This document shows, piece by piece, positions 25,501-60,032 of a stretch of 64,000 nucleotides of DNA (the stretch's first letter is position 1; each line of letters begins with the position of its first letter). The notes under the pieces were generated by a model. That model was not told the origin of the DNA. It saw only the letters and a list, made by a program, of their open reading frames with translations, and made no database searches. Location of the stretch: the NCBI GenBank assembly GCA_965204535.1, contig CBDBEV010000001.1, positions 320,001-384,000 on the forward strand, given 5' to 3'. This DNA comes from a bacterium (lineage in GTDB: Bacteria; UBA8248). The position numbers were made by a program, and so were the translations under genes.

Positions 25501-25910
25501 CGGGGCGCATTTGCCCGCATTTGCCGTCATCCCCAAAACCGCAGACTGCGCTATCGTGCGCGCGACGCGGGGAAGGTGTTTTTCCCCGGCGGATTGAGGC
25601 GCAGGCGGAGGAGGCTTTCTCATGGGATGGGGTGATGGAGCGGGGAAGCGTGACGGGAATGGGTTCAGGGACGGCATGAAAATAAAAATAATGATATTTC
25701 CCGTAAAATGCGATTAATCATTGTCATGAACCCGGTGTCGGCGCGATAGTATGATTGACTACGTATGTCTACGATAACTGATTGTTTATAATACCATATT
25801 TCTGTTATTTCGTACCCAGCTACCCCTTGCATTTTCGCCATACATATGCTTAGATAGCCTCCAGTTTGATGTCGCACGTATGCGTTTTGATTACAGATTC
25901 AGGAGGGAAG

Positions 25911-27086: not shown

Positions 27087-27093
27087 AGTGAAG

Positions 27094-38821: not shown

Positions 38822-40605
38822 GGAGACTGTGAGAGTATTGGATTTCACAGTCTCCGGAACAGGGCTCGCTTACGCTTGCAGCCCGATGGCCGGACACTGT
38901 CTTCAACTTCGGGAGCAACAACACCGCAGAGCCGGGAGAGAAACGTCTCGGCGGCCGGTCAGCTCGGGGTCGCGGTCAAGTCCTCGAAGAATCGGCTTCA
39001 AGTTCACACGCCATTCGTCCCCAACCGCTGTTTTTGCAGACAATGCTCCACAAATGCAGCTCCGCCCAGCACACGCATGACCCGCTTGAAGTTGTAACCC
39101 AGCGTCATCAGGCTGAATTCGCCGCGGCATTTGCCGAGTCCGCGCATCACAAAATGATCCATCCCCGCCCAGCGCTTGATCGTACCGAATGGATGTTCGA
39201 CGAGTGTGCTTCGCCCGCGCATCAATGGCACACGGGCGTTCATCTTCTTGCGATGCCGGTCCACCACGTCCTCATGCTCCCAGCGTTGTATCCTGCGCGT
39301 CGATCTCGACTTTGTCAGGCATCGGCCCGACAACGAACAGTCCCGGCAAACCGCCGCCGTCCCGCGATAAAAGTAATACAGCCTGCCCCTGACGGTGGTC
39401 GTGCCGCCTCGAACCAGACGCTCTCCGGCCGGACAGACATACGTGTCATCCTGCGCATCGTAACGGAATTCATCGCTGCCGAATCGTCCGTCCTTGCCCT
39501 TGCGGGCCGTCTGGTTCGGTATCGGAACATACACCTCCATTCCCTTGTCTTCGCAACTCTTCAACTGTGCGCCGTTGAAGTAGCCCGAATCCGCCAGGCC
39601 GACCAGGCGTTCGCTGCCCATGGCTTCGCCGGCTTTCGTCATCATCGGCTCCAACTGAGCGGAGTCATTGCCGTCCTGCACCACATCCTCCGCGACAATC
39701 AGCTTGTGCTTGTCGTCCACCGCGATCTGGCAGTTGTATCCGCCCACCATTATATCGCCGTTCCTCAGAAGTCGAGCATCTGCATCGACCCCCGATACCT
39801 GACGCTCTCCGCTTTCCTGCAAATGCTCTTGCAGTGCCTTCTTCTTTTGTTGCCTCTCGATCAAGGCCTTGAGCTTCACCGGCAGGTCCGGATCCTCCGA
39901 ACCGTCCCCACACTCCTCCCCGCGCGCATCCGCCTCGTCCAACTGCCGGTGATACGCCGCAATCCTCTTCTCCAAACGCCTCAGGTCCCTTGCCAGGGAC
40001 CGCTTGGTTTGGAAGCTGTCCAGGTTCGCATCGGCCTTCAAAAAAGTCCCGTCGACCGCCACCCGGCTGCCGCCCAGCAGCGAGAGTTCGCGGCACAGCA
40101 GCACGAACTCCCGGTTGGCCTCCTGCAGCGCAGCCACATTGTTCTTGCGAAAATCCGCAATCGTCTTGTAGCTCGGCGTCGCACCCTGGCACAGCCAGAT
40201 CACTTCCAGATTGCGCCGCGTCTCCGCTTCGAGACGGCGCGAACTCCGTACCCGGTGCTGGTAGCCGTACAGATACAGCTTCAGCAGCAGCGCCGGGTCG
40301 AAAGCCGGCTGACCGGCGCCGCAGTTCGCTTCGGCATGCGCGAACCCCAGCGCCTCCAGGTCCAGCGTGCCGACGAACGCATCGATCGCGCGCACCGCAT
40401 TGTGCTCGGACACGTAGTCGTCCAGACACGGCGGAAGCAGCATCATCTGGCTTCGGGACTGCACCTCCTGATAACGTCTCTCGGACATGGTGGTGACCCT
40501 TTATGTGGTTATCTCACTCACCGGTAAAGATAGCATGTACAGACAACCCGGGCATCGCTCGCCAGCGTCACCCACCAGAATCGTGGGAATACTTTCACAG
40601 TCTCC
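38822..40605 (-). mobile_element. IS1182-family insertion sequence
   Basis: Terminal IRs GGAGACTGTGAGAGTATT (38822) and AATACTTTCACAGTCTCC (40588-40605) around the transposase. Confidence 0.8.
39004..40488 (-). CDS. IS1182-family transposase
   Basis: LLKLYLYGY..RVRSSRRLE, PSYKTIADFRK, VAVDGT, LADSGYF, VEHPFGTIK. Confidence 0.93.
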   Translation of the reverse strand: MSERRYQEVQSRSQMMLLPPCLDDYVSEHNAVRAIDAFVGTLDLEALGFAHAEANCGAGQPAFDPALLLKLYLYGYQHRVRSSRRLEAETRRNLEVIWLCQGATPSYKTIADFRKNNVAALQEANREFVLLCRELSLLGGSRVAVDGTFLKADANLDSFQTKRSLARDLRRLEKRIAAYHRQLDEADARGEECGDGSEDPDLPVKLKALIERQQKKKALQEHLQESGERQVSGVDADARLLRNGDIMVGGYNCQIAVDDKHKLIVAEDVVQDGNDSAQLEPMMTKAGEAMGSERLVGLADSGYFNGAQLKSCEDKGMEVYVPIPNQTARKGKDGRFGSDEFRYDAQDDTYVCPAGERLVRGGTTTVRGRLYYFYRGTAAVCRDCSLSGRCLTKSRSTRRIQRWEHEDVVDRHRKKMNARVPLMRGRSTLVEHPFGTIKRWAGMDHFVMRGLGKCRGEFSLMTLGYNFKRVMRVLGGAAFVEHCLQKQRLGTNGV

Positions 40606-43275: not shown

Positions 43276-44020
43276 GATTGGGTGTCCTCTCCGGTTCGGT
43301 GATCCGCGGCGGGCCCCGCCATGGCGCCAGCCACGCCAACGACCAACATTAACGCCATCATGTTCTTCGCGACCCCGGCCCGTTCTCGGCTCGTCCGCCG
43401 CCGCCCTCATTCTGGCCACCTGCTCGCCCGGCCCCGGCATCTATTTCTGACAATTTTTGTGACGATTACTTTTCCTGCAATTCTGGGAAAAATGTTGCGC
43501 CTTTTGCTGCCGGCGCTGTTTACAGCTACGATCTGGGTGCTATGCAGATTCGCATTCCTTAGCAAAAAAATGACTTATATCAAAAGACCCGCTTCTTTAC
43601 CTAAATTATTTGATCTTCCTCACGTTTGTGGTGCTCTATATACATATAGCAATTTATTTCTGGGCCGAGTCAACTCCCCACGGACGGGGGGTCAATGTCA
43701 TTACAAGCATCATCGGTGTCGTTCCCGGCATTTTGTCATTCTTTGACGTAATTGGCGTCAAAATTAACGGTAAATTAGAGCCAACCATTCTTGTCGATCC
43801 GTTCGGAACTGGAAGTTCCATTTTGAATTACATCGGAATCGTTGTGTTCCTTGCTGTTGTTTTCTTCCCACATATTCTCCGTTGCTTACAAGATGGCTAA
43901 AAGAGCAGAATATAGAAAAGACGAATCGGTGGACAAATACTAATAAAATCCCTCCTATCTCGACCGTTTATCATATGCATATTGATAAATATCTTAAATA
44001 CAGTTAAATTTATTGCTATT

Positions 44021-44857
44021 ATGTCGACCTATAATCAAAGAAACAAATCCGTGAGACTCAATGAATTCCTGGATCGGCGCGCCGTGTTCACGATGGACGA
44101 ACTGGATCGTTTCCTGTCCGAGCGTGGATCCGGAAACACCCACACCCGCAAGTCGCTGCTGGCCTACCACCGCAGGCAAGGCCGGATCGTCCATGTGCGC
44201 CGCGGCCTGTATGCGACGCTTCCCCGGGGTATGGACCCGGAAACCACACCGGTCGATCCATTCCTGGTGGCGGCCAAGATGACCGGGGACGCGGTGCTGG
44301 GCTACCACACGGCCCTGGAGTTCCACGGGAGGGCATACTCGGTCCACTGGAGGCTGGTCTACGTCTCGGCGACCAAGTCGCTTCCGCTTACCTTCCAATC
44401 CCACGAGTTCCGGCGCGCGCCCGTGCCACCGCCACTGCTGGCGAAAGGAGAGGAGATGTTCGGGGTCAACCGCCATGAGCGCTCCGGCGTGAAACTCCGG
44501 GTGACCGGCCACGAAAGAACCCTGGTCGATGCGCTGGACCGGCCGGACCTGACCGGAACCTGGGAGGAGATATGGCGGTCCCTGGAATCGGTGGAGTTCT
44601 TCGATCTGGAACAGGTCATCGAGTACACCCGCCTGCTGGAGAACGCGACCACGGCGGCGAAGGTGGGGTTTTTCCTGGAACAGCACAGGGAGCCCTTGAT
44701 GGTGGAGGAGACCCACCTTGATGCCTTGCGCAAGCTGCGCCCGAGGCAGCCCCACCATATGACGCGAGGCAGGCCGAGGGGTTGCCTGTTGGTGAAAGAC
44801 TGGAACCTGATGGTTCCGGATGAAATCCTGAATCGGTCCTGGGAAGAGGTATCGTGA
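44021..44857 (+). CDS. AbiEi-like type IV antitoxin / transcriptional regulator
   Basis: N-terminal wHTH IVHVRRGLY; GYHTALEFHG; VTGHERTLVD; overlaps the next gene. Confidence 0.82.
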   Translation: MSTYNQRNKSVRLNEFLDRRAVFTMDELDRFLSERGSGNTHTRKSLLAYHRRQGRIVHVRRGLYATLPRGMDPETTPVDPFLVAAKMTGDAVLGYHTALEFHGRAYSVHWRLVYVSATKSLPLTFQSHEFRRAPVPPPLLAKGEEMFGVNRHERSGVKLRVTGHERTLVDALDRPDLTGTWEEIWRSLESVEFFDLEQVIEYTRLLENATTAAKVGFFLEQHREPLMVEETHLDALRKLRPRQPHHMTRGRPRGCLLVKDWNLMVPDEILNRSWEEVS

Positions 44858-45825
44858 GATTCTCCGCCTCGGAAATCCTGCCCGTGGCCCGAGCCAACGG
44901 ATTCAACGCGGAGGTGGTCGAGAAGGTTTTCTGCCTGGTGCATCTCCTGAACGCCCTGAACACGCACCCCTCGCTCAAGGGAAGATGGGTCCTGAAGGGC
45001 GGCACGGCCCTGAACCTGTTCGTCCTCCGCCATCCCCGGTTGTCCGTGGATATCGATCTCAACTACATCGGCGCACTGGAGCGCGAGGAAATGCTGGAGG
45101 AGCGGCCGAGGATCGAGCGGGCGGCCCAGGCGGTCTTCTCCCGCGAGGGGTTCACGGTCCGGAGGACGCCGAGCGAACACGCCGGAGGCAAGTGGCGGTT
45201 GAGCTATTCGAGCTATACCGGGCAGTCCGGGAGCCTCGAAGTCGATTTGAATTTCATGTTCAGGCAACCGCTTTGGGAGATCTACCAGGCCGATTCACAT
45301 CCACTCGGGAACTACCAGGCCAAAGACGTTCCCGTGCTCGATCTGCATGAACTCGTGGCCGGCAAGCTCTCGGCGCTTTTTTCTCGCAGACAGGCGAGAG
45401 ATCTGTTCGATTGTCACCGCATACTCGATACGGACACTCTTCAGCGCGAGCGGCTCCGCATCGCCTTCGTCGTCTACGGGGCGATGAACCGCAAGGACTG
45501 GCGAACCATCTCCGTCGCAGACGTGGACTACGATGAATCGGAGTTGGCGAGACAACTCGATCCCACTCTTCGAGTCCGTCAGCCGGGAGAACAGGCGTCA
45601 CTCGCTGAATACGGGGCGCAACTGCTGGGGGAGACCAGGAGGAGCCTGTCCGCTTTGCTTCCGTTTACCGATGCCGAGCAGGCGTTTCTCGATCTCCTGT
45701 TGGACAAAGGCGAAATCGACGCGACGATCCTGACCTCCGATACATCCTTGCAAAAACGCATCCAGGTCCAACCGCTTCTGGAATGGAAGGCCCTCAACGT
45801 GCGTCGACACAAGGGATTGTCCTGA
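44854..45825 (+). CDS. AbiEii-family nucleotidyltransferase toxin
   Basis: VEK; LKGGTALN...RLSVDIDL; K...R..ARDLFD. Confidence 0.88.
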   Translation: MRFSASEILPVARANGFNAEVVEKVFCLVHLLNALNTHPSLKGRWVLKGGTALNLFVLRHPRLSVDIDLNYIGALEREEMLEERPRIERAAQAVFSREGFTVRRTPSEHAGGKWRLSYSSYTGQSGSLEVDLNFMFRQPLWEIYQADSHPLGNYQAKDVPVLDLHELVAGKLSALFSRRQARDLFDCHRILDTDTLQRERLRIAFVVYGAMNRKDWRTISVADVDYDESELARQLDPTLRVRQPGEQASLAEYGAQLLGETRRSLSALLPFTDAEQAFLDLLLDKGEIDATILTSDTSLQKRIQVQPLLEWKALNVRRHKGLS

Positions 45826-46336
45826 CACGAAATCGCGCATGTTGACCATCAACGCGCTACACGGCCACTTCGAGGAGTTTGGGGTATCGCTCCGCAAGGA
45901 CCGGCTAATGTCGGCCAGTCGGCGAGTATCCGGGTTCGGGGCTGCCTGAAGTGGTTCTCGATCCAAGAGAGGTTCTCCGAGGTCGGCTTAAGGCATACAG
46001 AACATTATTCGCACGTCACAGCGAACATGCGGCCCCACAAGTACCCGACAAGTCCCCTTCAAGTCAGAAATCTCATCCGTTCCCCGGAAGGCGAACGGAC
46101 ACGAGCGAAAACTCTTCAGAATCGGGGGCTCAAGGATCGGACGAATCTGGCCAAGGAATACGTGCAACCGCCTCTTTCGCGGGCCCTATCGAGATGATCG
46201 TCCCGGACAAGCCCCGAAGCAACAAATAGAAGTAGCGGGGCGGACTTTGGAAGACGCCCCGACAGGTGTAAGCGTTCGGGCGGGCCGTGATGGTAGTGCC
46301 TTGAAGCAGTAGTTCGGGCCGGAATGGGGGATGATT

Positions 46337-47209
46337 TTACCGGTTGAGGACTTGCTTCCAGTTTCTGCGCAACGGTCGTAGCCAGATGTCCTTTTTCGGT
46401 TGGTCTCGTTTCGTGTATCTGTCGTAGCGTCCACGCCCCTGGGTCATACCGACGTGAATCCACCCCGATGCCCTGTAGACGGCGCCGGTGTAGCGCGGCG
46501 TCTCGACGAAGGTCTCGACGAGGACGGGTGTCGTGCCATAGCGCTCGGTCCAGTCCTCGGGCAGGCGCCTGCGGATGATGGCGAGGAGGTGTGAGCCGAG
46601 GTTGAGGATCCTGATCCATGGCAGGATGAGGAACCTCGGGTTGTCGACCACGAGGGGGAGGTTCTTCTCGCGCAGCTGCGGCGTCCAGCCGATGAAGCTG
46701 TCGCGCGGGGCGAGCTTCCACGCGGCGGTGGAGAAGCCGAGCATGGCGAGGGGCCTGCCGCCCCGGTCGTGGACGGCGTAGCGCATCTGCGCGCCGACGA
46801 GGGTCTTGTAGCCGAGGTAGTGGTAGCGGGCGACGAACTCGTTCCAGAGCCTGCCCTCGCGGGTTCCGCGCACGGCGACGCGCATATCGAGGGGGCGGAC
46901 TTCGTCGAGGGTCTCAGGCGCCGGGATGAGGGGAGGTTCGGTGTCGGGTCCGAAGACGATCGGCCCGGGCCGGTTCTGGCGCCACTTCGGTGGGGGCAGC
47001 GTGATCAGGCCGTCCTTGTGCATGGCCAGCATAGTCACCCGGGCCATCATGTCCTTGAGTCCGCCGTCGGGCTTGTACCAGCCGATTCGGCGGCAGAACT
47101 CCTTCGATAGCGCATGGCGGTTGAGCGCAGGTGGACCTGCGATCAGTTCGCGCAGCAGCGCCATCTCTTCCGTCGTGAAGTCGCGTCCGTGGTAGCGGCA
47201 CTCGGTCAC
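46337..47209 (-). CDS. DUF4338 (DruA-like) protein, copy 1
   Basis: YHYLGY, WKLAPRD.FIGW, NPRFLILPW, ETFVE..RYTGAVYRASGW..VG.TQGRGR. Confidence 0.85.
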   Translation of the reverse strand: MTECRYHGRDFTTEEMALLRELIAGPPALNRHALSKEFCRRIGWYKPDGGLKDMMARVTMLAMHKDGLITLPPPKWRQNRPGPIVFGPDTEPPLIPAPETLDEVRPLDMRVAVRGTREGRLWNEFVARYHYLGYKTLVGAQMRYAVHDRGGRPLAMLGFSTAAWKLAPRDSFIGWTPQLREKNLPLVVDNPRFLILPWIRILNLGSHLLAIIRRRLPEDWTERYGTTPVLVETFVETPRYTGAVYRASGWIHVGMTQGRGRYDRYTKRDQPKKDIWLRPLRRNWKQVLNR

Positions 47210-47213
47210 GGCG

Positions 47214-49568
47214 TCATCCCGGCGCCGTGAGGGCGCGCCTGCGCTCCGTGCTCATCGACCAGGGCAGCCACGCGGAGAGGTCCCCGGGCGCCCGGCCGCC
47301 GTTCTCCGCGCAGGCCGTGAGCCATGCCTCCAGCCAGCGGAGCGGGTCGACCCCGTTCGACGCGAGGGTTCCGAGGACCGAGTACATCATCGCCGTAAAC
47401 CTGGCGCCGGCCTCGCTGTCGGAGCCGAACGAGAGCCGCCTGCCGATCACAGGGCCCCGAAGCGCACGTTCGCTGGCGTTGTTATCCATCGGCACCGAGG
47501 GGCGTTCGATGAAGACGCTCAGCCCCTCGCGGTGGTTCAGCAGCGAGCGAAGCGCCTTGCCCTCGCGCGCCTGCGCGGGCAGAGCGGCCATCTCCCGTCG
47601 GGCCTGCGCGAACAGGTCCTTGAGCGCCTTCTTCAATTCGTCGTGCGCCGCGTCGAACGCCGCATCCTGGCGTTCGACGCCCGGGTCGTAACTGGCCAGG
47701 CGCGCCTCGTTCAGGCGGTAAAGCAAGGCAATCCGCTCGATCCATCTCTCGCACCACGGCGTCAGCCGCTCATCGCCGGCGGCGCAGTGGATATAATCGC
47801 GCCGGACGTGACTCCAGCACCATGCGAGAGTCACCAGACCCCCGGGAATGCGCGCCAGCTTCTTGTAGGCGCTGTAGCGGTCGCAGACGATGACCGTATG
47901 GGAGCCGGCCGCGCCGAACAGCTTCATCGCGACCTCAGCACTCCGCGAGGGGTCGACGTGGAAGTAGACGGAGTCTGCGCTGACCGAGGTCCACAGCCAG
48001 GCGCGGCTCGAGCGTCCTTGTTCGCGAAGCGACTGAACGCGCCACGTCGTCTCGTCCCCGTGACGCACCGCCGCTTCGTTCTGGCGGTCGAGGATCGCCG
48101 CAGCCAGCGGCTCGAAGAGCGGCGTGAAGCGGTGCGTGCTGTCGCCCAGTGTGCCTGCAGAGACCGGAAGCCCCTGGTCGGAGAGCCACGCGGCGACCCG
48201 GCGCAGCGGGCGGAAGCAGGCGTAGCGCTCGAACAGGAAGCGCGCCCACACGCTCGTCCCGTAAGGCGTGCCCGCGAACAGGCGCGGCGCGGCGGGCGCC
48301 GACACTTCCACCGGAGACGACGCGCACGCGCATCTCCTGCGCCATCTCGGACGGCGGATGACGCGCTTGTGGGCCGAGACTTCGATCTCGAAGATGGAGG
48401 AGACCTCGGCGCCATTGGCCACGTAGGGCTTCCCGCAACCGGCGCAGACGCGCGCACCGGCCGGCGGGTTGCGAACTTCGGTCCTCTCATCGAGCGCGGG
48501 CCGCGGGGTGCGGCCATGACCGGCGGCGCCGGGTTGCCGGCCGCGCCTGCGCTCCGAGCGCGGCCTCTCCTGCCGTTCGCTCTTGCGCCCGAACAGTCTT
48601 CTCGCCAGCACCGCTCCGGTGGCGCGAAGCTTCGCGAGATCGGCCTCCAGCCGCGCCCGGATGGTCTCTGACTTGCGGAGCGCCCTGCGAAGACGCCCGT
48701 TCTCCCTCGACAGCGACCTGAGCGCCGTCTTCTGGCGCCGCGACCTCCCCAGGGCCTTGCGCAGTTCCTCATCTGCACGAGACGGCGACTTCGAGCGCGC
48801 CGCCTCGAGAGCGCGCAGCAACCGCGCCTTCAGCCGTTCGGTCGCAATGCCTACGGCCCCCAGGGAGACTTCAAGACGGTAGACCTCCGCAGACAGCGAC
48901 TCGACCACCTCCGCCTGGTCGCGCAATCGCCTCAACTTCCTGTAGAGCCCGATGGCCTCCTCGTCCAGGCTCCGAATGGTCTCCTTGTCGGTCGCCGACT
49001 TCTGCTTCTCCAGGGCCAGACGATCTTCGAGCCGGGCAACTTCCTTCTCCCGCCGGCCGACCTCCTTGCGCAGGGCATGAATCGTCTCCTTGCGCTCCTC
49101 CAGGGCCTTGCGCAGCCGCCCCGCCTCCCCCGGCGACGGCACGCCCGAGAGCTCCTTGCGAAGCCGGACGACCTCCATGCGCAGCGACATGAGCGGGCTG
49201 CGCTTGCGCGGATCGACCCCCGCCTCCGCAAGCAGCTTCTCCAGCCGCGCCACTTCCGCCTTGAGCGACAGCGCGTCCTTCGCCGCGCGGCGGGCTTCCT
49301 TCGCCTCCCCGGCGGCCGCCTCGAGCTTCTTCCGGCTGGCGTCGAGATGCCGCTTCAGCTTGCCCGCACGGGAGCGGGAATCCACTTCCGCCCAACGCAA
49401 CTCCTCGCAGCGCGCCTCCGCCGCCTCCGCGCGCGCACGCTCGCGCTCGTACAGCGAACGCCAGTACGCCTCTGCGGTTGTGGACAACCCGGGGGAATGA
49501 GGCCATGGCTCATCCGGCCTCTCGGCCAACGCCAACTCCGTCTCGACAGCTTCTGCGCGAATCTTCAT
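47214..49568 (-). CDS. IS66 TnpC transposase with a long N-terminal coiled coil, copy 1
   Basis: LFGRKSE, C..C zinc finger, HGDETTW, CDRYSAY, CWSHVRR, DNNASERALR. Confidence 0.92.
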   Translation of the reverse strand: MKIRAEAVETELALAERPDEPWPHSPGLSTTAEAYWRSLYERERARAEAAEARCEELRWAEVDSRSRAGKLKRHLDASRKKLEAAAGEAKEARRAAKDALSLKAEVARLEKLLAEAGVDPRKRSPLMSLRMEVVRLRKELSGVPSPGEAGRLRKALEERKETIHALRKEVGRREKEVARLEDRLALEKQKSATDKETIRSLDEEAIGLYRKLRRLRDQAEVVESLSAEVYRLEVSLGAVGIATERLKARLLRALEAARSKSPSRADEELRKALGRSRRQKTALRSLSRENGRLRRALRKSETIRARLEADLAKLRATGAVLARRLFGRKSERQERPRSERRRGRQPGAAGHGRTPRPALDERTEVRNPPAGARVCAGCGKPYVANGAEVSSIFEIEVSAHKRVIRRPRWRRRCACASSPVEVSAPAAPRLFAGTPYGTSVWARFLFERYACFRPLRRVAAWLSDQGLPVSAGTLGDSTHRFTPLFEPLAAAILDRQNEAAVRHGDETTWRVQSLREQGRSSRAWLWTSVSADSVYFHVDPSRSAEVAMKLFGAAGSHTVIVCDRYSAYKKLARIPGGLVTLAWCWSHVRRDYIHCAAGDERLTPWCERWIERIALLYRLNEARLASYDPGVERQDAAFDAAHDELKKALKDLFAQARREMAALPAQAREGKALRSLLNHREGLSVFIERPSVPMDNNASERALRGPVIGRRLSFGSDSEAGARFTAMMYSVLGTLASNGVDPLRWLEAWLTACAENGGRAPGDLSAWLPWSMSTERRRALTAPG

Positions 49569-49757
49569 GCCGACATCATTAGCACATGTCGAATCGCGTT
49601 ACCAGTCGCCCGGGAAAATTCTATCCGATGGAGGCGATGCGCCCGGCGCCGGGTCCATCACGGCCCGCCCGAACGCTTACACCGACAGGTAAGCGTTCGG
49701 GCGGGCCGTGATGGTAGTGCCTTGAAGCAGTAGTTCGGGCCGGAATGGGGGATGATT

Positions 49758-50630
49758 TTACCGGTTGAGGACTTGCTTCCAGTTTCTGCGCAACGGTCGT
49801 AGCCAGATGTCCTTTTTCGGTTGGTCTCGTTTCGTGTATCTGTCGTAGCGTCCACGCCCCTGGGTCATACCGACGTGAATCCACCCCGATGCCCTGTAGA
49901 CGGCGCCGGTGTAGCGCGGCGTCTCGACGAAGGTCTCGACGAGGACGGGTGTCGTGCCATAGCGCTCGGTCCAGTCCTCGGGCAGGCGCCTGCGGATGAT
50001 GGCGAGGAGGTGTGAGCCGAGGTTGAGGATCCTGATCCATGGCAGGATGAGGAACCTCGGGTTGTCGACCACGAGGGGGAGGTTCTTCTCGCGCAGCTGC
50101 GGCGTCCAGCCGATGAAGCTGTCGCGCGGGGCGAGCTTCCACGCGGCGGTGGAGAAGCCGAGCATGGCGAGGGGCCTGCCGCCCCGGTCGTGGACGGCGT
50201 AGCGCATCTGCGCGCCGACGAGGGTCTTGTAGCCGAGGTAGTGGTAGCGGGCGACGAACTCGTTCCAGAGCCTGCCCTCGCGGGTTCCGCGCACGGCGAC
50301 GCGCATATCGAGGGGGCGGACTTCGTCGAGGGTCTCAGGCGCCGGGATGAGGGGAGGTTCGGTGTCGGGTCCGAAGACGATCGGCCCGGGCCGGTTCTGG
50401 CGCCACTTCGGTGGGGGCAGCGTGATCAGGCCGTCCTTGTGCATGGCCAGCATAGTCACCCGGGCCATCATGTCCTTGAGTCCGCCGTCGGGCTTGTACC
50501 AGCCGATTCGGCGGCAGAACTCCTTCGATAGCGCATGGCGGTTGAGCGCAGGTGGACCTGCGATCAGTTCGCGCAGCAGCGCCATCTCTTCCGTCGTGAA
50601 GTCGCGTCCGTGGTAGCGGCACTCGGTCAC
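49758..50630 (-). CDS. DUF4338 (DruA-like) protein, copy 2
   Basis: Translation identical to 46337-47209. Confidence 0.85.
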   Translation of the reverse strand: MTECRYHGRDFTTEEMALLRELIAGPPALNRHALSKEFCRRIGWYKPDGGLKDMMARVTMLAMHKDGLITLPPPKWRQNRPGPIVFGPDTEPPLIPAPETLDEVRPLDMRVAVRGTREGRLWNEFVARYHYLGYKTLVGAQMRYAVHDRGGRPLAMLGFSTAAWKLAPRDSFIGWTPQLREKNLPLVVDNPRFLILPWIRILNLGSHLLAIIRRRLPEDWTERYGTTPVLVETFVETPRYTGAVYRASGWIHVGMTQGRGRYDRYTKRDQPKKDIWLRPLRRNWKQVLNR

Positions 50631-50634
50631 GGCG

Positions 50635-52989
50635 TCATCCCGGCGCCGTGAGGGCGCGCCTGCGCTCCGTGCTCATCGACCAGGGCAGCCACGCGGAGAG
50701 GTCCCCGGGCGCCCGGCCGCCGTTCTCCGCGCAGGCCGTGAGCCATGCCTCCAGCCAGCGGAGCGGGTCGACCCCGTTCGACGCGAGGGTTCCGAGGACC
50801 GAGTACATCATCGCCGTAAACCTGGCGCCGGCCTCGCTGTCGGAGCCGAACGAGAGCCGCCTGCCGATCACAGGGCCCCGAAGCGCACGTTCGCTGGCGT
50901 TGTTATCCATCGGCACCGAGGGGCGTTCGATGAAGACGCTCAGCCCCTCGCGGTGGTTCAGCAGCGAGCGAAGCGCCTTGCCCTCGCGCGCCTGCGCGGG
51001 CAGAGCGGCCATCTCCCGTCGGGCCTGCGCGAACAGGTCCTTGAGCGCCTTCTTCAATTCGTCGTGCGCCGCGTCGAACGCCGCATCCTGGCGTTCGACG
51101 CCCGGGTCGTAACTGGCCAGGCGCGCCTCGTTCAGGCGGTAAAGCAAGGCAATCCGCTCGATCCATCTCTCGCACCACGGCGTCAGCCGCTCATCGCCGG
51201 CGGCGCAGTGGATATAATCGCGCCGGACGTGACTCCAGCACCATGCGAGAGTCACCAGACCCCCGGGAATGCGCGCCAGCTTCTTGTAGGCGCTGTAGCG
51301 GTCGCAGACGATGACCGTATGGGAGCCGGCCGCGCCGAACAGCTTCATCGCGACCTCAGCACTCCGCGAGGGGTCGACGTGGAAGTAGACGGAGTCTGCG
51401 CTGACCGAGGTCCACAGCCAGGCGCGGCTCGAGCGTCCTTGTTCGCGAAGCGACTGAACGCGCCACGTCGTCTCGTCCCCGTGACGCACCGCCGCTTCGT
51501 TCTGGCGGTCGAGGATCGCCGCAGCCAGCGGCTCGAAGAGCGGCGTGAAGCGGTGCGTGCTGTCGCCCAGTGTGCCTGCAGAGACCGGAAGCCCCTGGTC
51601 GGAGAGCCACGCGGCGACCCGGCGCAGCGGGCGGAAGCAGGCGTAGCGCTCGAACAGGAAGCGCGCCCACACGCTCGTCCCGTAAGGCGTGCCCGCGAAC
51701 AGGCGCGGCGCGGCGGGCGCCGACACTTCCACCGGAGACGACGCGCACGCGCATCTCCTGCGCCATCTCGGACGGCGGATGACGCGCTTGTGGGCCGAGA
51801 CTTCGATCTCGAAGATGGAGGAGACCTCGGCGCCATTGGCCACGTAGGGCTTCCCGCAACCGGCGCAGACGCGCGCACCGGCCGGCGGGTTGCGAACTTC
51901 GGTCCTCTCATCGAGCGCGGGCCGCGGGGTGCGGCCATGACCGGCGGCGCCGGGTTGCCGGCCGCGCCTGCGCTCCGAGCGCGGCCTCTCCTGCCGTTCG
52001 CTCTTGCGCCCGAACAGTCTTCTCGCCAGCACCGCTCCGGTGGCGCGAAGCTTCGCGAGATCGGCCTCCAGCCGCGCCCGGATGGTCTCTGACTTGCGGA
52101 GCGCCCTGCGAAGACGCCCGTTCTCCCTCGACAGCGACCTGAGCGCCGTCTTCTGGCGCCGCGACCTCCCCAGGGCCTTGCGCAGTTCCTCATCTGCACG
52201 AGACGGCGACTTCGAGCGCGCCGCCTCGAGAGCGCGCAGCAACCGCGCCTTCAGCCGTTCGGTCGCAATGCCTACGGCCCCCAGGGAGACTTCAAGACGG
52301 TAGACCTCCGCAGACAGCGACTCGACCACCTCCGCCTGGTCGCGCAATCGCCTCAACTTCCTGTAGAGCCCGATGGCCTCCTCGTCCAGGCTCCGAATGG
52401 TCTCCTTGTCGGTCGCCGACTTCTGCTTCTCCAGGGCCAGACGATCTTCGAGCCGGGCAACTTCCTTCTCCCGCCGGCCGACCTCCTTGCGCAGGGCATG
52501 AATCGTCTCCTTGCGCTCCTCCAGGGCCTTGCGCAGCCGCCCCGCCTCCCCCGGCGACGGCACGCCCGAGAGCTCCTTGCGAAGCCGGACGACCTCCATG
52601 CGCAGCGACATGAGCGGGCTGCGCTTGCGCGGATCGACCCCCGCCTCCGCAAGCAGCTTCTCCAGCCGCGCCACTTCCGCCTTGAGCGACAGCGCGTCCT
52701 TCGCCGCGCGGCGGGCTTCCTTCGCCTCCCCGGCGGCCGCCTCGAGCTTCTTCCGGCTGGCGTCGAGATGCCGCTTCAGCTTGCCCGCACGGGAGCGGGA
52801 ATCCACTTCCGCCCAACGCAACTCCTCGCAGCGCGCCTCCGCCGCCTCCGCGCGCGCACGCTCGCGCTCGTACAGCGAACGCCAGTACGCCTCTGCGGTT
52901 GTGGACAACCCGGGGGAATGAGGCCATGGCTCATCCGGCCTCTCGGCCAACGCCAACTCCGTCTCGACAGCTTCTGCGCGAATCTTCAT
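50635..52989 (-). CDS. IS66 transposase, copy 2
   Basis: Translation identical to 47214-49568. Confidence 0.92.
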   Translation of the reverse strand: MKIRAEAVETELALAERPDEPWPHSPGLSTTAEAYWRSLYERERARAEAAEARCEELRWAEVDSRSRAGKLKRHLDASRKKLEAAAGEAKEARRAAKDALSLKAEVARLEKLLAEAGVDPRKRSPLMSLRMEVVRLRKELSGVPSPGEAGRLRKALEERKETIHALRKEVGRREKEVARLEDRLALEKQKSATDKETIRSLDEEAIGLYRKLRRLRDQAEVVESLSAEVYRLEVSLGAVGIATERLKARLLRALEAARSKSPSRADEELRKALGRSRRQKTALRSLSRENGRLRRALRKSETIRARLEADLAKLRATGAVLARRLFGRKSERQERPRSERRRGRQPGAAGHGRTPRPALDERTEVRNPPAGARVCAGCGKPYVANGAEVSSIFEIEVSAHKRVIRRPRWRRRCACASSPVEVSAPAAPRLFAGTPYGTSVWARFLFERYACFRPLRRVAAWLSDQGLPVSAGTLGDSTHRFTPLFEPLAAAILDRQNEAAVRHGDETTWRVQSLREQGRSSRAWLWTSVSADSVYFHVDPSRSAEVAMKLFGAAGSHTVIVCDRYSAYKKLARIPGGLVTLAWCWSHVRRDYIHCAAGDERLTPWCERWIERIALLYRLNEARLASYDPGVERQDAAFDAAHDELKKALKDLFAQARREMAALPAQAREGKALRSLLNHREGLSVFIERPSVPMDNNASERALRGPVIGRRLSFGSDSEAGARFTAMMYSVLGTLASNGVDPLRWLEAWLTACAENGGRAPGDLSAWLPWSMSTERRRALTAPG

Positions 52990-53439
52990 GCCGACATCAT
53001 TAGCACATGTCGAATCGCGTTACCAGTCGCCCGGGAAAATTCTATCCGATGGAGGCGATGCGCCCGGCGCCGGGTCCATCACGGCCCGCCCGAACGCTTA
53101 CCCGACAGGTACGCTCCGAAATGCGCAGGAGTTTGAATCAATCTGCTTTCGATTTGCTTACTTATTACTGAAACCGAGTCCCTAACAAAACTCCTAGAAA
53201 ACAAATACCTGCAATAATTTCAACAAACTAAAAAGATTCCACCCCTGCTGAAACTCCCCACCGTCTCTAAACACGCGGAAGAGCGGGATGTCGCCCCCTC
53301 CCGCCAGGAGTCCGTGGCACTGACTACGCAACTGCCGGGCGGTCGGGCAGGCCCCGGGTTCGAGCGGCTTCGCCGGAAAGGCGGACTCAAACCGCCCCGC
53401 TGCCGCCTCCCCGCGCGTCGTTCGCATATTCCATGATGA

Positions 53440-53665
53440 TGGACGGCCCCTGCATGGCCCAGGAGCCGTCGCCCTAACTCCAGGCGAACGCGACGCCCGC
53501 GAGGACCCCCCCGACTCGTAATCGGCGCCCATCACGCCCGCCGTCACGTCGCCATCGAGAGAGAGCGCCCTCTGTGTCGCTGAACGAAGAGCGCCACTTC
53601 ATGGTCCCCGAGCGTCGGCCGCGTCGGGGCGGCGCTCCCCTCGATGCGCGCGCCCACGGCTTCGG
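53440..53665 (-). pseudogene. Degenerate autotransporter beta-domain fragment
   Basis: EAVGARIEG...SFS..EG.L.LDGDVTAGVMGADYE...GVAFAWS*GDGS parallels the 18458 gene; frameshifts and a stop. Confidence 0.7.
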
Positions 53666-53680
53666 GCGCCTGCTTCGCCG

Positions 53681-53890
53681 CTACTGCCTGTTCACGCCGA
53701 AGCCGCCGACCATCCGGCCGTCCGTGCTGAACATCGAGTGGAACGTTCCGGTCGCGACCTTCGGAACACCGTCGTCGCCATTTTCGTAAAGCCGGCCGGA
53801 CCACTCGCCGGAGGAGGCGGCGGCCGTGCCGTCGATGGGCCACACCGTATCGTTATCTGCGGTGCGGCTAATGCCACCCGTAGCGGCGAA
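53681..53890 (-). pseudogene. 3' fragment of a TbpB-like lipoprotein paralog
   Basis: NDTVWPIDGTAAASSGEWSGRLYENGDDGVPKVATGTFHSMFSTDGRMVGGFGVNRQ* aligns to the C-terminus of the 54847 gene. Confidence 0.75.
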
Positions 53891-54846
53891 TTCAGATCCA
53901 GTTTCATGAAGTGTGTCACGGTGATGTTTGACTTCAGGTCGGCGGACCAGATGATCCGCGCCGCCGCCGGGGCGGCGGCTTCGGTGAGGGATACGAGCGG
54001 GCGCCCACCATGCGGCGGGATGCCGCCTGCAGGTTGCAAGTCCCGGCGGGCTCTCTCCACGCGGTTTCTCACTTCCCGGCCCTGCCCTTCCCTGTATTTC
54101 GATTTCCCGAGAAAGAGCCGGACGGCGCGCTCGGCCCGGCTTTCCTCACGACGGGACATCTGTTCCGGTTTATCGTCCCATTCTACCAAAAGTTGCATGT
54201 CTTGTTCGCATTCGGACTCTTTGATTTCATGTCTGTATCGCGCATGCATTTTCCCCCGTGTTTTCCGGCCCCGGGAAGGGGAGAGATGAACGGAAGCGAC
54301 GAGGCGGGGCGCATCCCGCGGCTGCGCGCGGCGCCCTACGAAGCGGGTTCGCTGTCGGTCCACCCCCGCTGCGCCGGTGACGGTGCGAGGGCGCAGGAAA
54401 GATTGCTCCGCTTCGTTCCCCGATCCCGTCGCGAAGGGAAGCGAGACCCCCGTGGAGCATCACCTGCAGCCAAGGGCGGAACAGGTCCGGCAAAATCAAG
54501 GAAGGAGAATTTGACCTGGGCCAACCCGATTGGAGAAGGGCCGACACCCCTCAAAGGACTGACTCAAGGGGTTGTTGAAAAAACCCCTGAAGGCGGGAAC
54601 TGCTGCGACACAATCCCTGAGGTGCACAGGCCAAATCGGGGTGTCGGCCTGCTTGCATGGAGCGAAAACAGGGGCTGCCCGTTGTTCCCCCTCCCGGCTC
54701 GAGGACTCAAACTCACAACCGGGAGCGGTACAGTTTGCTCCATCACGAGGGAAGCAACCAACGGGCAACCCCCTTTTCGCTCTACTTGATTCGCCCGGGC
54801 CCCGGGGCGGTGAAGCCCCGAGGCAAAGGCGTCCTGCTCTTCGCTG

Positions 54847-56594
54847 CTACTGCTTGTTCACGCCGAAGGCGCCGACCATTTTGCCGGCCGTGCTGAACTC
54901 GGAATAGAACGTGCCGGTCCCGACCTTCGGAATGCCGCCGTCGTCATTGTCGTAGAGCGTTCCGGCCCACTCGCCGGAGGCGGTGGCGGCCGTCCCGCCC
55001 ATGGTCCAGACCGTATCGTTGCCGTCCTGGCCTGTGCCTGTCCGAGTAATACCCCCGGTGGCAGCAACGACAGCCTCCTTCAACTCGACCGACCAGTCAC
55101 GCGACATGCCGTCCGCGCCCATGAAGTTGTCGATGGTGCCCGTGATCGAATTGTCGGTGAAATCGGCTTTAAGCGTCGCCTTCGCGGTGAAGTGGCCTGC
55201 GTCGTTCGTTCCCCCGGTCGCGCTGTAGAGCGCGTACTTGCCGGCGGCGCCGCCCATGTAGGTCGCCGTTCCATTCAAGGTATCGAGGGCAGCGGCAGCC
55301 GGGACGGCGCCCTTCACATCCGCGAACGCGCTCGCGGTGAACTTGCTGCCGTCCTCGGACTTGTGGATCCACCAGCCGTAGGAAGCGTAGATGGCGTCCG
55401 GCGTGCTCACGACCCTGGCGTTCGGGTCGGCGGGCTTGAAGTGCCAAGCGCTCGCCGTAAACGTGTTGTCGGTCGCCGAAGCCACGGTGCCAAGCTGGAA
55501 GGAGTTCTTACCCGCTACGCGGGAGGCGCATATGGTCGTGCCGGTGGGCGTGCAATACCAGGTGCCCGACACGCCGTGGAAACTGCCGGCGATCATCACA
55601 CGCCGAAGACTTTCCGTCTTCTCGAAGGTCTTGACCCCGGCACCCTGGTCGAAGCTCGGACTGGCGATCCGCTTCTGGGTGGTCTCGTCGGTCGTCGAGT
55701 TGACCTCCAGTTCTCCTTCGTCATTCAACGAGTACTGGAATTTCGCGATTTCTGCCGGACTGCGAGTGCCGAACGGCTTGCCCTGCGTCGGCTCGTCCAC
55801 GTTCGAGTAGACGACCGCTTCGTACATGCCGTCGTCGTCGGGCTCGGCCGTATACTTCTTGCCCTCCCAGCCGTGGTTGTCGGGGACCGTCGCATCCTTC
55901 TTTTCCGAAAGAGCGACGGGCTCGGCGGTGCCGATGCCCACCATGATGCGCGTGTCGACGGCAACGCCGGTGTCGGGAACGTCGACGTTGTTGTACGCGG
56001 CGCCCCGCTGGTCCGCGGTCAAGGCGGTGTTAGCGGCCGTCGTTGTGGTGGCATCGCCACTCGGCGCAGCGATTCCCATGTGCAGCTTCAGGGCATCCGC
56101 CATCATGGCCGCATCCGCGGCCTTCTGCGCAGCGTCCATCGCCGCCGTGCGGGCCGTCTTGGCGGCGGCAAGCTGGGTTTCCAGCGCGGTGACGGTTCCG
56201 GTGTTCGCGGTTTTCTCCGCCGCCGGTACATTTTCGGCCGCCGCTATCGCCGCCTTCGCGGCCATGATCGCCGCATCGGCGGCGCTCACCTCGGCAGCGG
56301 TCGAGGCGTTGTCGACGGCTAAGACCTTCGTCTGGGCGTCCGCCAGTTTCATCTTGATGTCTTCACGCTCCATAGCCAATTTCTCTGCCGCCAAATCTGC
56401 GGCTGAAGTGCATGTCTCATCGGCATTCCATCGGCCCCCCGCGTCCTCGCACGCCATCCGCGAGTCATCAGGCATCTCGGCCGGCGCTTGCGTAGAGCCC
56501 CGCCGCCACCGCCGCAGCCCGCCAGCGTCAGCGCGAACACGGCCGCCAGCGCGAAAGCGTAGAACTTGTGAACATACTTGTCTTTGAACATCAT
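54847..56594 (-). pseudogene. TbpB-like surface lipoprotein with a frameshift just after the lipobox (or a sequencing error)
   Basis: Signal MMFKDK...LTLAGCGGGG lies in a different frame from the body (Ala-rich helix, ATYMGGAAGKY, GKMVGAFGVNKQ). The shift is at a G4 run, 56498-56501. Confidence 0.78.
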
Positions 56595-56850
56595 TTAGTG
56601 AGTCCTCCTGAATACACAATAGAAAAAGGGATCTTCCGTGAATTTCCGGCTTTCTCCGATTAACCTCCTTTCGTCAGCTTTTTTTCGGGCCTTCACAAAC
56701 TGGTGATTCGTATTCTGGGCCGCCTGAAATACGGCAGGCTCAAACCCTTTCATGCTCCGGGCCGGTGGTTCCGCGAGAGACATGTTCCTGCGGCATGCGC
56801 CCGCCTTTCACTGCCTCCAGAGGCGAGCCGCCTGCCACCCGGCCTGCCCG

Positions 56851-57038
56851 CCGATAATCGCTATTATCGGATGTGAGAAGCCCCGCTTTCCGCCGGGAGA
56901 GGCGTTTCGGGGCGCATCCGGGCCGTAAATGAGCGCGAAAAGACGCAAAACGGCGCCCGAAACCCCTCCGGGGACCCCGGAATTGCGCTTGACATGGCCT
57001 TGAGAGGTGTTATATTTTCTGATAATAGCGATTATCGG
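56851..57038. promoter_or_regulatory. Two palindromic recombinase-type sites flanking a sigma70-like promoter
   Basis: CCGATAAT-CGCT-ATTATCGG (56851) and CTGATAAT-AGCG-ATTATCGG (57019); TTGACA at 56989 and TGn-TATATT at 57011. Confidence 0.65.
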
Positions 57039-57154
57039 ACTCCAGAAACCCGCCGTTTCGCCGGTATTCCCCTGCGAAACGGCTTTTTTTATTGGAAATT
57101 CCCCGCCGTCGTCTATACTCGGCAATCGACGAGGCCCGGGAGCGGCCTCAGGGA

Positions 57155-58135
57155 ATGGAAACGGCCGCTGACCCGGAAGGTTGGCTTCTCGGCATGACGA
57201 CGGGGGCAACACCGCCCGACCCGGAACAGGACATCGCTTTGACGAGGAGGCCGGCCCGACCGGCCCGTGCGGCCGCCGACCTGGCGAAGGCGTCGATGTC
57301 TGAGAACACGCGGCGAGTGTACGAGACGGCCCTGCGGAGGTTCGAGCGCTCGGGAAACCCCGAGACCGACGCCGGGATAGCGGCGTACCTGGGGGATCTC
57401 TACGAGGGGGGGCACTCGGCGGCCGTGGCCGCGATGGCGGTCGCGGCGCTTCGCTTCCGGGCGAAGCTGAACGGCCGGCCCTCCCCGGCGGGACCTGCGA
57501 CGGAGCGGGTGCTGGCCGGCTTCCGGCGCCTGGCCGCAGAGCGCGGCCGCGGCCAGGTGGCGGGGGTGCGCTGGGAGCAGGCGGACCGGGCGGCGGCGCT
57601 GGCCGAGGGGACGGGGACCCTGGGCGGTCTGCGCGACGCCGCGATCGTGGCGGTGGCGAGCGACGCCCTGCTCCGGGTGTCGGAGGTCGAGGCGCTCGAC
57701 ATCGAGGACGTGGACCTGGGCGAGCAGACGGTGCTGATCCGCCGCTCGAAGACCGACCAGGAGGGCGAGGGCGTCGTGCAGTTTCTGGGCGAGCCGACGG
57801 TGGCGCGCGTCGGGGCCTGGCTTCTGGAGGCGGGCCTGACGAAGGGGCCGCTCTTCCGGCCGCTGTTCAAGTCGGGCCGGCTACGGGAAGGCCGCCTGAC
57901 GGAGAGGAGCATCCGGCGCATCATCATCCGGCGCGCCCGGGACGCGGGCGTGGAGGGGCGCATCAGCGGGCACAGCCTGCGCGTGGGCAGCGCCCAGAGC
58001 CTGGCCACGGCGGGGGCGTCGCTGGTCGAGATGCAAATCGCCGGGCGCTGGCAGTCGCCGGCCATGCCGGGGCGCTACGCGCAGGGCCAACTCGCGAAAC
58101 AGGGCGCGATGGCGAGGCTTCGCTACGGGCGGTGA
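57155..58135 (+). CDS. Cre-like tyrosine recombinase (start 57155 or 57194)
   Basis: LRDAA, LLRVSE, RRSKTDQEGEG, SGHSLRVGSA, AGRW, RY. Confidence 0.9.
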   Translation: METAADPEGWLLGMTTGATPPDPEQDIALTRRPARPARAAADLAKASMSENTRRVYETALRRFERSGNPETDAGIAAYLGDLYEGGHSAAVAAMAVAALRFRAKLNGRPSPAGPATERVLAGFRRLAAERGRGQVAGVRWEQADRAAALAEGTGTLGGLRDAAIVAVASDALLRVSEVEALDIEDVDLGEQTVLIRRSKTDQEGEGVVQFLGEPTVARVGAWLLEAGLTKGPLFRPLFKSGRLREGRLTERSIRRIIIRRARDAGVEGRISGHSLRVGSAQSLATAGASLVEMQIAGRWQSPAMPGRYAQGQLAKQGAMARLRYGR

Positions 58136-58220
58136 GGTCCGCCCGGCGTTTCGTCGAACACGGGACAGGCACGAAGAGAATTCGCGGCGGGAGCGCCCCG
58201 CCCGCGTCCGGAATTCAGGA

Positions 58221-58318
58221 GGGCGATGGTCTCACGCTCTGCCGCCGCGGCCTCCTCCGTCGTGAGCATGTCCTTCGCTCCGGGCAGGTCCGCCGCGTGC
58301 AGGACGCCCGTCTTCTCC
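58221..58318 (-). pseudogene. Short relaxase fragment
   Basis: Close nucleotide match to 32064-32160 (EKTGVLHAADLPG..DMLTTE.AAAAERETIA). Confidence 0.7.
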
Positions 58319-58329
58319 CGAATATCTCC

Positions 58330-59028
58330 CTACCGCCTCTTCCGCCGGGCGGCTCTCTCCTCGGACGTGGAAGTCCACCTCCGGGCGGAGGCCCACTTCT
58401 CGAGGTCTTCGAGCAGGTAGCGCACCCGGTATCCGATGCGAAGAAAATCCGGCCCCTCTCCGCTCACGCGGTAGCGCTCCAGCGTCTTGGGCGAGAGGCC
58501 GAGCCAGGCGGCCGCCTCCCGCGTGTTCAGGTGGTTCTCCTCCGTGCGCTCATCGGCGTCTCCCGCGGCGTCCCACGTCCCGTCGAACGGGTCGGGCAAG
58601 TCCGCGAGCCTCCTGCGTATGGCGCGGATCTCCTCTCCCGTCGCGTTGGCCGCCATCCAGGCGCGCACCCGGTCGAAGGTCTTGAGATACGGCGAGGCGC
58701 CCCGGCGCAGCCTCCCCACGAAAGAGGGATTCCCCACGGTCTCCTCGCCCAGGATCGAGACCTTGGTCCCGCTCACCGCGAGAAACGCCTCGACCTCGGC
58801 CCGCAGGAGCGGTCCCAGCGGCGGGTACCCCATGAACGCGAGCACCCGGTCCGCCGTGTCGACCCGCAGGGGCCGCCCCCGGGCGTGCAGACCCACGAAG
58901 CCGGGAATCCCCAGCGCGCCCACCCCGAAGCGCCTCGCGCTCATCCCGCGGCGCGCGCGCCAGAGCGCAATGCTCCGGCGCAGCCGCTCGTCCAGCGGGG
59001 CGCCGGTATCGTCGTCGAACGCGGTCAT
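58330..59028 (-). CDS. Protein with two Cro-like repeats plus a C-terminal excisionase-type HTH_17
   Basis: FG..ALG.PGFV...RG...R..TADRV.AFM twice; LNTREAAAWLGLSPKTLERYRVSGEGP.F. Confidence 0.75.
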   Translation of the reverse strand: MTAFDDDTGAPLDERLRRSIALWRARRGMSARRFGVGALGIPGFVGLHARGRPLRVDTADRVLAFMGYPPLGPLLRAEVEAFLAVSGTKVSILGEETVGNPSFVGRLRRGASPYLKTFDRVRAWMAANATGEEIRAIRRRLADLPDPFDGTWDAAGDADERTEENHLNTREAAAWLGLSPKTLERYRVSGEGPDFLRIGYRVRYLLEDLEKWASARRWTSTSEERAARRKRR

Positions 59029-59269
59029 GGCGCGCGAACATAAGGAAAGAACGAGCGCCCGTTCAATCGTTGTTTCTAGCGCGAAAGGTACACCCGTGAA
59101 GAATCCGCGCCCGCGTCCGTGCGCGGATCGCTCATCGGTTCAGCCTGAAATCAAGGGGGTTTCCCGGAAAACGAGGGTCGCCGGAGAACGTGCAGCGAGG
59201 CGCTGCGGAAAAAAAGGAACAATGTCGCCCCCCGGCCGAGAGTTCGAAAACCTCTTTCGTTCACACCGC

Positions 59270-59350
59270 GGCGCCCGGCGAGTTGCATCCCGACCGGAGA
59301 AGCCCCTGTCGCGGCAAGACGCTGCGCGCTGCCCGTGCGCAGGTCGAAAC
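59270..59350 (-). pseudogene. Inverted fragment of a Cre-like recombinase
   Basis: LRTGSAQRLAATGASPVGMQLAGR matches LRVGSAQSLATAGASLVEMQIAGR. Confidence 0.6.
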
Positions 59351-60032
59351 GGCGCCTATTCCCTTGTTTCATTCGTTTTTATCGCATCGTATGCTGATGT
59401 TCCGGGTCGTCCGCCAAATACAATACGGCCAAGCCGAAACAGGCGGACATTCCTTCGTGGATTGTATGCCAACGGCCCGGATTCTGGAGGACATATAAAA
59501 TATTCGGCCGGGCAGGCGGGGGGCAGCAATGCCTCCGCCTACCCGGCCTGCCCCCCCAGTAATCATTCTCTCATGGGGTGATGAGCATCAAAAATTCGCC
59601 GACCCAAATCGGATACGCCGTGCCATACTAACAACTGCCTCTGAGCCTTGTGGTATTATCACCCTGCCAACGAACGATTACCCGGTCTTCGACGACTCGC
59701 GCCCCCTGGGATGCTCTGGGGTTGTAATGAGTCCGCTTGCGTTTTGATTACATTTATTTCAAGGAATTTATAACCAGCTTGAAAACAATAATTTAATTTT
59801 TATATTCTGGATATATCGATAAATTCACGGGGTTATTCGATAAATTCCTGAAAATTACCGGCCATGCAAGTGGTTGTAATAAAAAGAGTTGCCATAGAAA
59901 CCTGAGCGTCCCGCACTCAGATATAGCGGCAAAAAAAGTTTTTCGCCGACCCCCGCATTTGCCCGCAACAGCCCGCATTTCCTCCCGCACCGCATCACGC
60001 CGGCAAAGCCTCATTCATCAATCGGAATCGAC

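Follow-up and report, generated by a model that had tools for sequence, protein, structure and literature searches.

Insertion sequences (IS) are taken to carry little besides transposition genes. In the IS66 family the terminal inverted repeats (IRs) begin GTAA, and the classical organisation, that of IS66 and IS679, is tnpA-tnpB-tnpC. Members of the ISBst12 group (ISBst12, ISDge4) have no tnpA or tnpB; ISDge4 has 8-bp direct repeats and a single 449-aa open reading frame (ORF) (PMC12898284, in excerpt). Druantia type I, the defence system that includes DruA, has a five-gene definition (PMC7251935, in excerpt), and Mom of phage Mu (PF25680, PDB 8BV8), itself borne by a transposing element, is a Gly-tRNA-dependent adenine N6 modifier. 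Here we describe an IS66 element in which tnpC is followed by a gene of the DruA family DUF4338 (PF14236). It lies in a 64,000-nucleotide stretch, hereafter the window, of a bacterium of the lineage UBA8248 (assembly GCA_965204535.1, contig CBDBEV010000001.1, positions 320,001 to 384,000). The second gene is a constant part of a distinct IS66 subgroup, and its product is predicted to have a GNAT fold closest to that of Mom, onto which several of Mom's putative active-site residues map.

An earlier note on this DNA had taken 46268-53101 for one element; the interval is instead two identical 3,413-bp IS66 copies in tandem, both on the minus strand (46268-49680 and 49689-53101), 8 bp apart. Each copy ends in perfect 26-bp IRs whose first letters are GTAAGCG, at 46268-46293 and 49655-49680 in copy 1 and at 49689-49714 and 53076-53101 in copy 2 (DUF4338-proximal, then tnpC-proximal). 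Between them lie only tnpC (47214-49568 and 50635-52989, minus strand, 784 aa) and a 290-aa DUF4338 gene (46337-47209 and 49758-50630, minus strand) that begins exactly 4 nt past the tnpC stop, just as the note had described. It was also right about what is missing. tnpC starts 112 nt from the element's left end, which leaves no room for tnpA or tnpB, and the host genome (95.7% complete) has no match to PF05717 (TnpB_IS66), a profile that detected 3 of 14 controls. No other dru gene lies inside the ends, and the DruE marker PF09369 is likewise without a match across that genome. Rfam found nothing in 45800-60100. In alphaproteobacterial relatives the tnpC stop and DUF4338 start overlap as ATGA, and this overlap suggests that the two genes are translationally coupled.

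The element is an IS66 member by its TnpC DDE transposase, GTAA ends and 8-bp target duplication. It has the TnpC family, ends and duplication length of classical IS66/IS679 but neither tnpA nor tnpB. With the ISBst12 group it shares GTAA-type ends, the 8-bp duplication, an IS66 DDE transposase and the lack of tnpA and tnpB; that group has a single ORF, as do the nearest sister elements, whereas the window element has two. Its own features relative to that group are a fixed second gene, a TnpC of 700-890 aa, an expanded coiled coil and a marked target preference.

DUF4338 and tnpC are consistently linked. A DUF4338 search gave at least 527 candidates. Its 77 best loci carry about 34 isolate names and hence are not independent; in all 77, tnpC sequence lies directly upstream and ends 8-39 nt before the match, in one case as an internal fragment. 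IRs matching at 20 or more of 24 positions enclose 48 of the 77, and 27 of these 48 have 8-bp duplications. Comparing the coordinates of TnpC and PF14236 matches across 51 genomes of the host phylum placed PF14236 just downstream of all 32 TnpC matches above the cut-off, 13 of them from the host genome. The note's proposal of a distinct IS66 subgroup with DUF4338 inside its ends is therefore supported, and the subgroup occupies its own side of a branch in the TnpC tree.

Sister elements do without the second gene. Among 80 metagenome loci found with TnpC, three (54-88% identity) carry a separate DUF4338 gene, two an in-frame fusion and 75 (about 35-42%) none. IRs bound 46 of these 75, and 43 are 1.80-1.97 kb long with one 552-580-aa ORF and nothing else. 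A tree of 44 TnpC cores splits a two-gene clade, with one internal fusion, from a single-gene clade, outside which four further fusions branch. The tree is a quick one, unrooted, with long branches and no named element, and the order of events, one DUF4338 loss or several gains, is not resolvable from it.

The element has recently been mobile without tnpA or tnpB. The host genome (G000) holds 13 full copies at 10 sites: 11 are identical, one has a single terminal mismatch and one is 95.6% identical. Exact 8-bp duplications flank seven of the ten sites, and the other three have 9, 7 and 0 bp. At the window site the flanking direct repeat is 9 bp (46259-46267 and 53102-53110). An empty allele of this site exists, because contigs from two of three sequencing runs connect 46257 to 53101, with 9 letters fitting either side; the runs belong to one study and are possibly the source samples. 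In the 95.6% copy (G000:C2:546750-550162) the differences are confined to about 2.6 kb, and about 830 bp at the tnpC start are identical, which suggests recombination or gene conversion between variants. Two DUF4338 remnants also lie in the host genome.

Tandem copies occupy three of the ten genomic sites, with spacers at window 49681-49688, G000:C1:904264-904271 and G000:C2:596193-596201. Seven of the eight bases of the window spacer equal the flanking repeat; the first differs and is unexplained by the target. The junction between the window's two copies is spanned by none of the contigs among those listed, and the tandem there rests on the genome assembly. The varied spacers (8, 8 and 9 bp), which fit the local target sequence, argue against a simple assembly artefact. 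The pair at C2:592780 is compatible with two insertions offset by 1 bp. Among the 48 IR-enclosed relatives, six have a second end 7-17 bp away; abutted ends or tandem copies with 7-9 bp spacers occur at loci L026, L033, L037, L047 and L054.

The DUF4338 protein is a predicted GNAT enzyme whose closest structural likeness is to Mom. It matches PF14236 at 132.6 bits (cut-off 27), and DUF4338 has already been stated to be a GNAT (PMC10853773, in excerpt). A model built on a shallow alignment scored poorly (predicted local distance difference test, pLDDT, 59.6) and was set aside. With an alignment of 90 sequences the model reached pLDDT 93.6, giving an N-terminal helical domain of about 75 aa and then a predicted GNAT domain at about residues 100-290, with H130, Y131, R192, S206, E236 and Y245 as residues of note. 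Searched against 48,161 chains, the model placed Mu Mom 8BV8 first (Z 14.5, root-mean-square deviation 3.5, 165 residues aligned, 13% identity), with the next chain at Z 12.5, and its viral structural neighbours include a protein named Mom. Sequence profiles point in the same direction: 57 of 60 family members match PHROG 1384 'Mom-like' at E≤0.1 (best 1e-8), and 26 of 60 relatives match Pfam Mom (PF25680) weakly at E≤1 (best 1e-4). The window's own protein has no PF25680 match, and sequence searches of solved structures with it returned nothing significant. For residues 1-95 the Atlas returned unnamed clusters only; by its secondary structure this part of the protein may be winged-helix-like.

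The likeness extends to several putative catalytic residues. Under three aligner settings Mom H58, Y59, N121, S124, D149, G156 and Y159 fall on H130, Y131, N203, S206, E236, G242 and Y245, and the motifs HY, N-x-x-S and T-F-x-D/E...G-x-x-Y are common to both proteins. H130 and R192 are conserved in 90 of 90 aligned sequences and S206 in 89. Seven putative active-site residues have been named in Mom, namely H58, Y59, R111, S124, D149, R151 and Y159 (PMC13219725, in excerpt); five of them map consistently to conserved DUF4338 positions, D149 as E/D236. The window protein differs from Mom in having an N-terminal domain and a DruA-type insertion (165-186).

Several observations weigh against a Mom-like function. 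Foldseek places Mom only sixth among generic GNATs, albeit with the highest query TM-score (0.43). R192 never aligns on Mom's essential R111 and matches by motif spacing only, and Mom R151 lands one residue off. Mom's helix-turn-helix (HTH)-like insertion (175-209), which is essential there (PMC13219725, in excerpt), has no counterpart, falling in a gap of about 23 residues in three alignments and in a short loop of the model. The same source holds that Mom's substrates are not predictable from its fold. In profile comparison the protein lies much nearer to DruA-like controls, with an hhalign probability of 98% (E 4e-14), and reaches only 6-8% against Mom (E about 0.005). DUF4338 is also absent from 75 of the 80 metagenome loci found with TnpC.

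The earlier note's suggestion of a mobilised defence gene is not supported in the sense of Druantia, for all the kinship with DruA. The two share Pfam family PF14236 and a homologous core, the hhalign comparison having used two full-length controls and one distant one. DruA is about 380-400 aa long and the full-length controls about 380, compared with 290 aa here, and the PADLOC DruA model scores the window protein at 21.8 bits over 93 of 407 positions as against 361-371 bits over about 367 for the two full-length controls. In the alignment those controls lack the HY and S206-type residues, both present in the window protein; their operons include a HerA-like ATPase. Druantia type I has druB-E where the element has none. 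We infer for the protein a mode of action nearest to Mom's; it is related to DruA and belongs to neither system. Two same-genus genomes carry full-length DruA-like genes (L108:2565-6714, L109:7142-11272) with an unknown gene and then a HerA-like ATPase behind them in place of recognised druB-E; these are possibly an undescribed defence operon.

TnpC itself is an IS66 transposase with an expanded N-terminal coil. It matches NF033517 at 286 bits (cut-off 180) and PF03050 at residues 435-723 (E 1.6e-56), with Cys motifs at 375 and 413 and DDE motifs at 505, 562 and 696; its best match in the plasmid database is only 34% identical. The long coiled coil that the note had reported is present at about residues 40-324 (48597-49451 in copy 1, minus strand). 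It is no separate extension, however. The segment ahead of the LFGRKSE motif, about 80 aa long in sister elements, ranges from 158 to 429 aa among 21 two-gene elements; the coil's two ends resemble the sisters' leucine-zipper segment, and its middle varies through large indels. The coil is a variable expansion of the ordinary N-terminal leucine zipper and, by the dN/dS values below, weakly constrained.

By the same values, DUF4338 is the most conserved part of the element and under strong purifying selection. Over 189 pairs from 20 elements the median dN/dS is 0.215 in DUF4338, 0.384 in the TnpC core and 0.741 in the coil; the set was selected for DUF4338 similarity, a bias that tells against our interpretation. 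The three TnpC-found loci with a separate gene point the same way, with DUF4338 identities of 89, 83 and 72% and TnpC identities of 88, 74 and 54%.

DUF4338 also accompanies other transposases. A profile search gave 9,839 representatives at E≤0.001, and a scan of 34 longer hits showed fusions of the domain to IS66 TnpC (two full-length), IS4/Tn5 domains (five), DDE_Tnp_1 (one), IS630-type DDE_3 (one) and DUF6788 (one). Among 400 sampled Pseudomonadota genomes, 20 have a match, at 26 distinct places. Sixteen of these are fused to or beside IS66, IS4/Tn5, ISAs1, DDE_Tnp_1 or UPF0236 proteins, the last of which we take to be ISLre2 transposases; three are cut by contig ends, and seven lack a transposase, all seven being partial matches. 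Full-length copies thus stand almost only beside transposases, and lone copies are mostly fragments. Only 2 of 72,556 plasmid records match DUF4338; one plasmid copy, annotated as stand-alone, is upstream of integrase and IS91/IS4 genes. The 50,697 phage records hold no relative at E 1e-3. Other layouts include a gene upstream of TnpC (among IS66 loci L214, L217 and L218), DUF4338 beside UPF0236 proteins (L219, L220) and ISAs1 transposase fusions with up to 10 copies in one genome (L243-L246). The ISAs1-fused form is shorter and lacks the N-terminal domain.

Insertion favours one spot in a 60-bp genomic repeat. Six of the ten genomic sites begin within one base of the repeat's start, in either orientation, and a seventh has the far half of the repeat at the same distance. 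The genome contains 31 copies and a shuffled contig none; the first repeat matrix was trained on the six insertion sites, and 25 other copies exist nonetheless. Six of ten insertions at 31 short targets in 4.6 Mb are not chance. Of the 12 IR-bounded loci whose records are titled only 'bacterium', 11 have the repeat next to them, as do 2 of the other 36. The window has two copies (53103-53162, plus strand, whose first bases are the preferred insertion spot, and 59693-59752); the repeat ends in TTGATTAC and has internal inverted arms. Ahead of several unoccupied copies lie solo relics of IS66-like ends, as at G000:C1:758488-758513.

The repeat may possibly be an attachment-site-like junction. 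An integrase or excisionase-like gene lies within 3.5 kb, on one side, of 9 of the 31 copies, and five of eight long matches to the window's integrase are 1.1-2.6 kb from a copy. Within the window, an integrase gene and an HTH_17 gene lie between the copies at 53103 and 59693, along with a lipoprotein-like ORF. A comparable preference is known from the ISAba32 subgroup of the IS1202 family, which targets Xer sites and inserts at a fixed distance from a tyrosine-recombinase-associated repeat (10.1101/2022.12.17.520857, in excerpt); the window element's transposase belongs to a different family, and its repeat is only a presumptive recombination site. Repeat copies and flanks are identical between G000:C2:7356-34410 and G000:C1:208069-221183, as would be expected of a segmental duplication or of overlap in the assembly.

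We tentatively favour, at somewhat less than an even chance, a two-gene IS66 element whose modelled GNAT acylates nucleic acid, most likely DNA adenine as Mom does, for the element's benefit. Co-expressed behind tnpC, the enzyme would be made only alongside the transposase. It would probably act close to the element, because it has an extra N-terminal domain and its family is repeatedly fused to unrelated transposases. There it would acylate nucleic acid, most likely adenine in DNA, and marking of the element or its vehicle DNA might allow survival of restriction in a new host or a tuned reuse of the ends. DUF4338 would be an optional advantage outside the core chemistry of transposition, because sister TnpCs have none. 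The earlier note's idea of a transposition accessory is plausible to this extent, but the 46 IR-bounded sisters speak against an obligatory helper. An obligatory subunit that replaced TnpA and TnpB in this lineage is accordingly improbable: DUF4338 has never been found missing within the clade and is better conserved than the TnpC core, yet the 43 compact sisters make do with one ORF, and transposition of an ISBst12-group element with a single ORF has been observed (PMC12898284, in excerpt). A stand-in for tnpA/tnpB is likewise unlikely, because their absence is shared with the DUF4338-free sisters.

Other roles for the protein fit parts of the evidence. Instead of modifying DNA, the GNAT could be a regulator that turns transposition up or down by acylating a protein, be it the transposase itself or a nucleoid or replication factor of the host. 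The structural neighbours, at Z 11-12.5, are for the most part N-acetyltransferases of small molecules or proteins, the fusions to several transposases would suit a cis-acting enzyme, and the IS accessory regulators Arc and Orf121 are known (10.64898/2026.09.24.754181, in excerpt); Mom nevertheless outscores the generic GNATs by 2 Z units and shares the motifs given above, and a single enzyme would need to suit unrelated transposases, so we regard this as unlikely. Somewhat less likely again is a toxin or an effector against phages, which would correspond to the note's stand-alone defence gene: the GNAT would then acylate tRNA or protein and render the element addictive or of use to its host. 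Homology to DruA, the element's position next to an AbiE pair within mobile DNA, and a DUF4338-DndF fusion in some defence loci, proposed as a suicidal co-effector (PMC10853773, in excerpt), speak for such a role. The ends enclose no antitoxin or partner, 13 copies are tolerated, DruA's length, score and partners are lacking, and transposase-free copies are mostly broken, including the two remnants in the host genome, unlike a host-beneficial gene. It is also improbable that DUF4338 is mainly a DNA-binding or targeting subunit that directs the element to the 60-bp repeat or next to ends already in place, with the GNAT core as scaffold. The repeat at most host-genome sites and 'bacterium'-titled loci, the tandems and neighbouring ends, and the extra N-terminal helical domain would suit that role, but the catalytic-type residues are invariant, only 2 of 36 other loci abut the repeat despite a DUF4338 81-86% identical, the ISAs1 fusions lack the N-terminal domain, and targeting could equally well be the work of the variable coil.

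The tandem lies in a mobile region (25866-59700). This begins with two tandem Arm-type tyrosine integrases (25866-27083 and 27088-28260), a pair whose matches recur about 26 times in the genome, and continues with a TrwC relaxase (30445-33279), a DUF772/DDE transposase (39007-40488) and an AbiEi/AbiEii pair (43982-45825); SSB, DUF4326 and SLOG proteins are encoded there as well. Beyond the element are an Ala/Thr-rich, lipoprotein-like ORF of 590 aa (54847-56619, minus strand), a third integrase (57092-58132) and an HTH_17 gene (58333-59028). The 590-aa ORF has no Pfam match and resembles a TbpB-like surface protein by eye only; it has 15 long matches in the genome, several beside an integrase module. 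Outside the region, an adhesin-like protein of 1,967 aa (18458-24358, plus strand), which combines cadherin-like, fn3 and Calx-beta domains, overlaps a very GC-rich, skewed stretch (20001-24000).

Mom gene neighbourhoods have reportedly been surveyed by Iyer in 2009 and 2013, and these surveys may already note a transposon link. A literature search, which left ISfinder, Iyer 2009/2013, Han 2001 and supplements outside its scope, found no account of a DUF4338/DruA or Mom-like gene in an IS, and DUF4338 is mentioned in just four of the papers searched. The excerpts of PMC7824862, PMC4738411, PMC3971601, PMC8565338 and 10.64898/2026.09.24.754181 contain no link of Mom or DruA to IS elements. The present analysis contributes a sister clade free of DUF4338, an empty allele, a comparison that sets the protein apart from DruA controls, and a defined target repeat.

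A broader interpretation is possible, though we think it doubtful: unrelated IS families may repeatedly have recruited one Mom-like enzyme, mislabelled DruA, that hypermodifies DNA at or around the element for anti-restriction or self-marking, with this lineage's element also homing beside integrative-element junctions. If so, a conserved DNA-modifying enzyme common to five or more IS families would amount to a novel accessory function, possibly with a novel base modification, and annotation would be corrected, many 'DruA' calls being transposon genes. Homing to one spot beside integrative-element junctions would put the element on DNA travelling between cells. Active without tnpA and tnpB, forming tandems and showing a sharp target preference, the element offers a handle on the poorly known mechanism of IS66 transposition.

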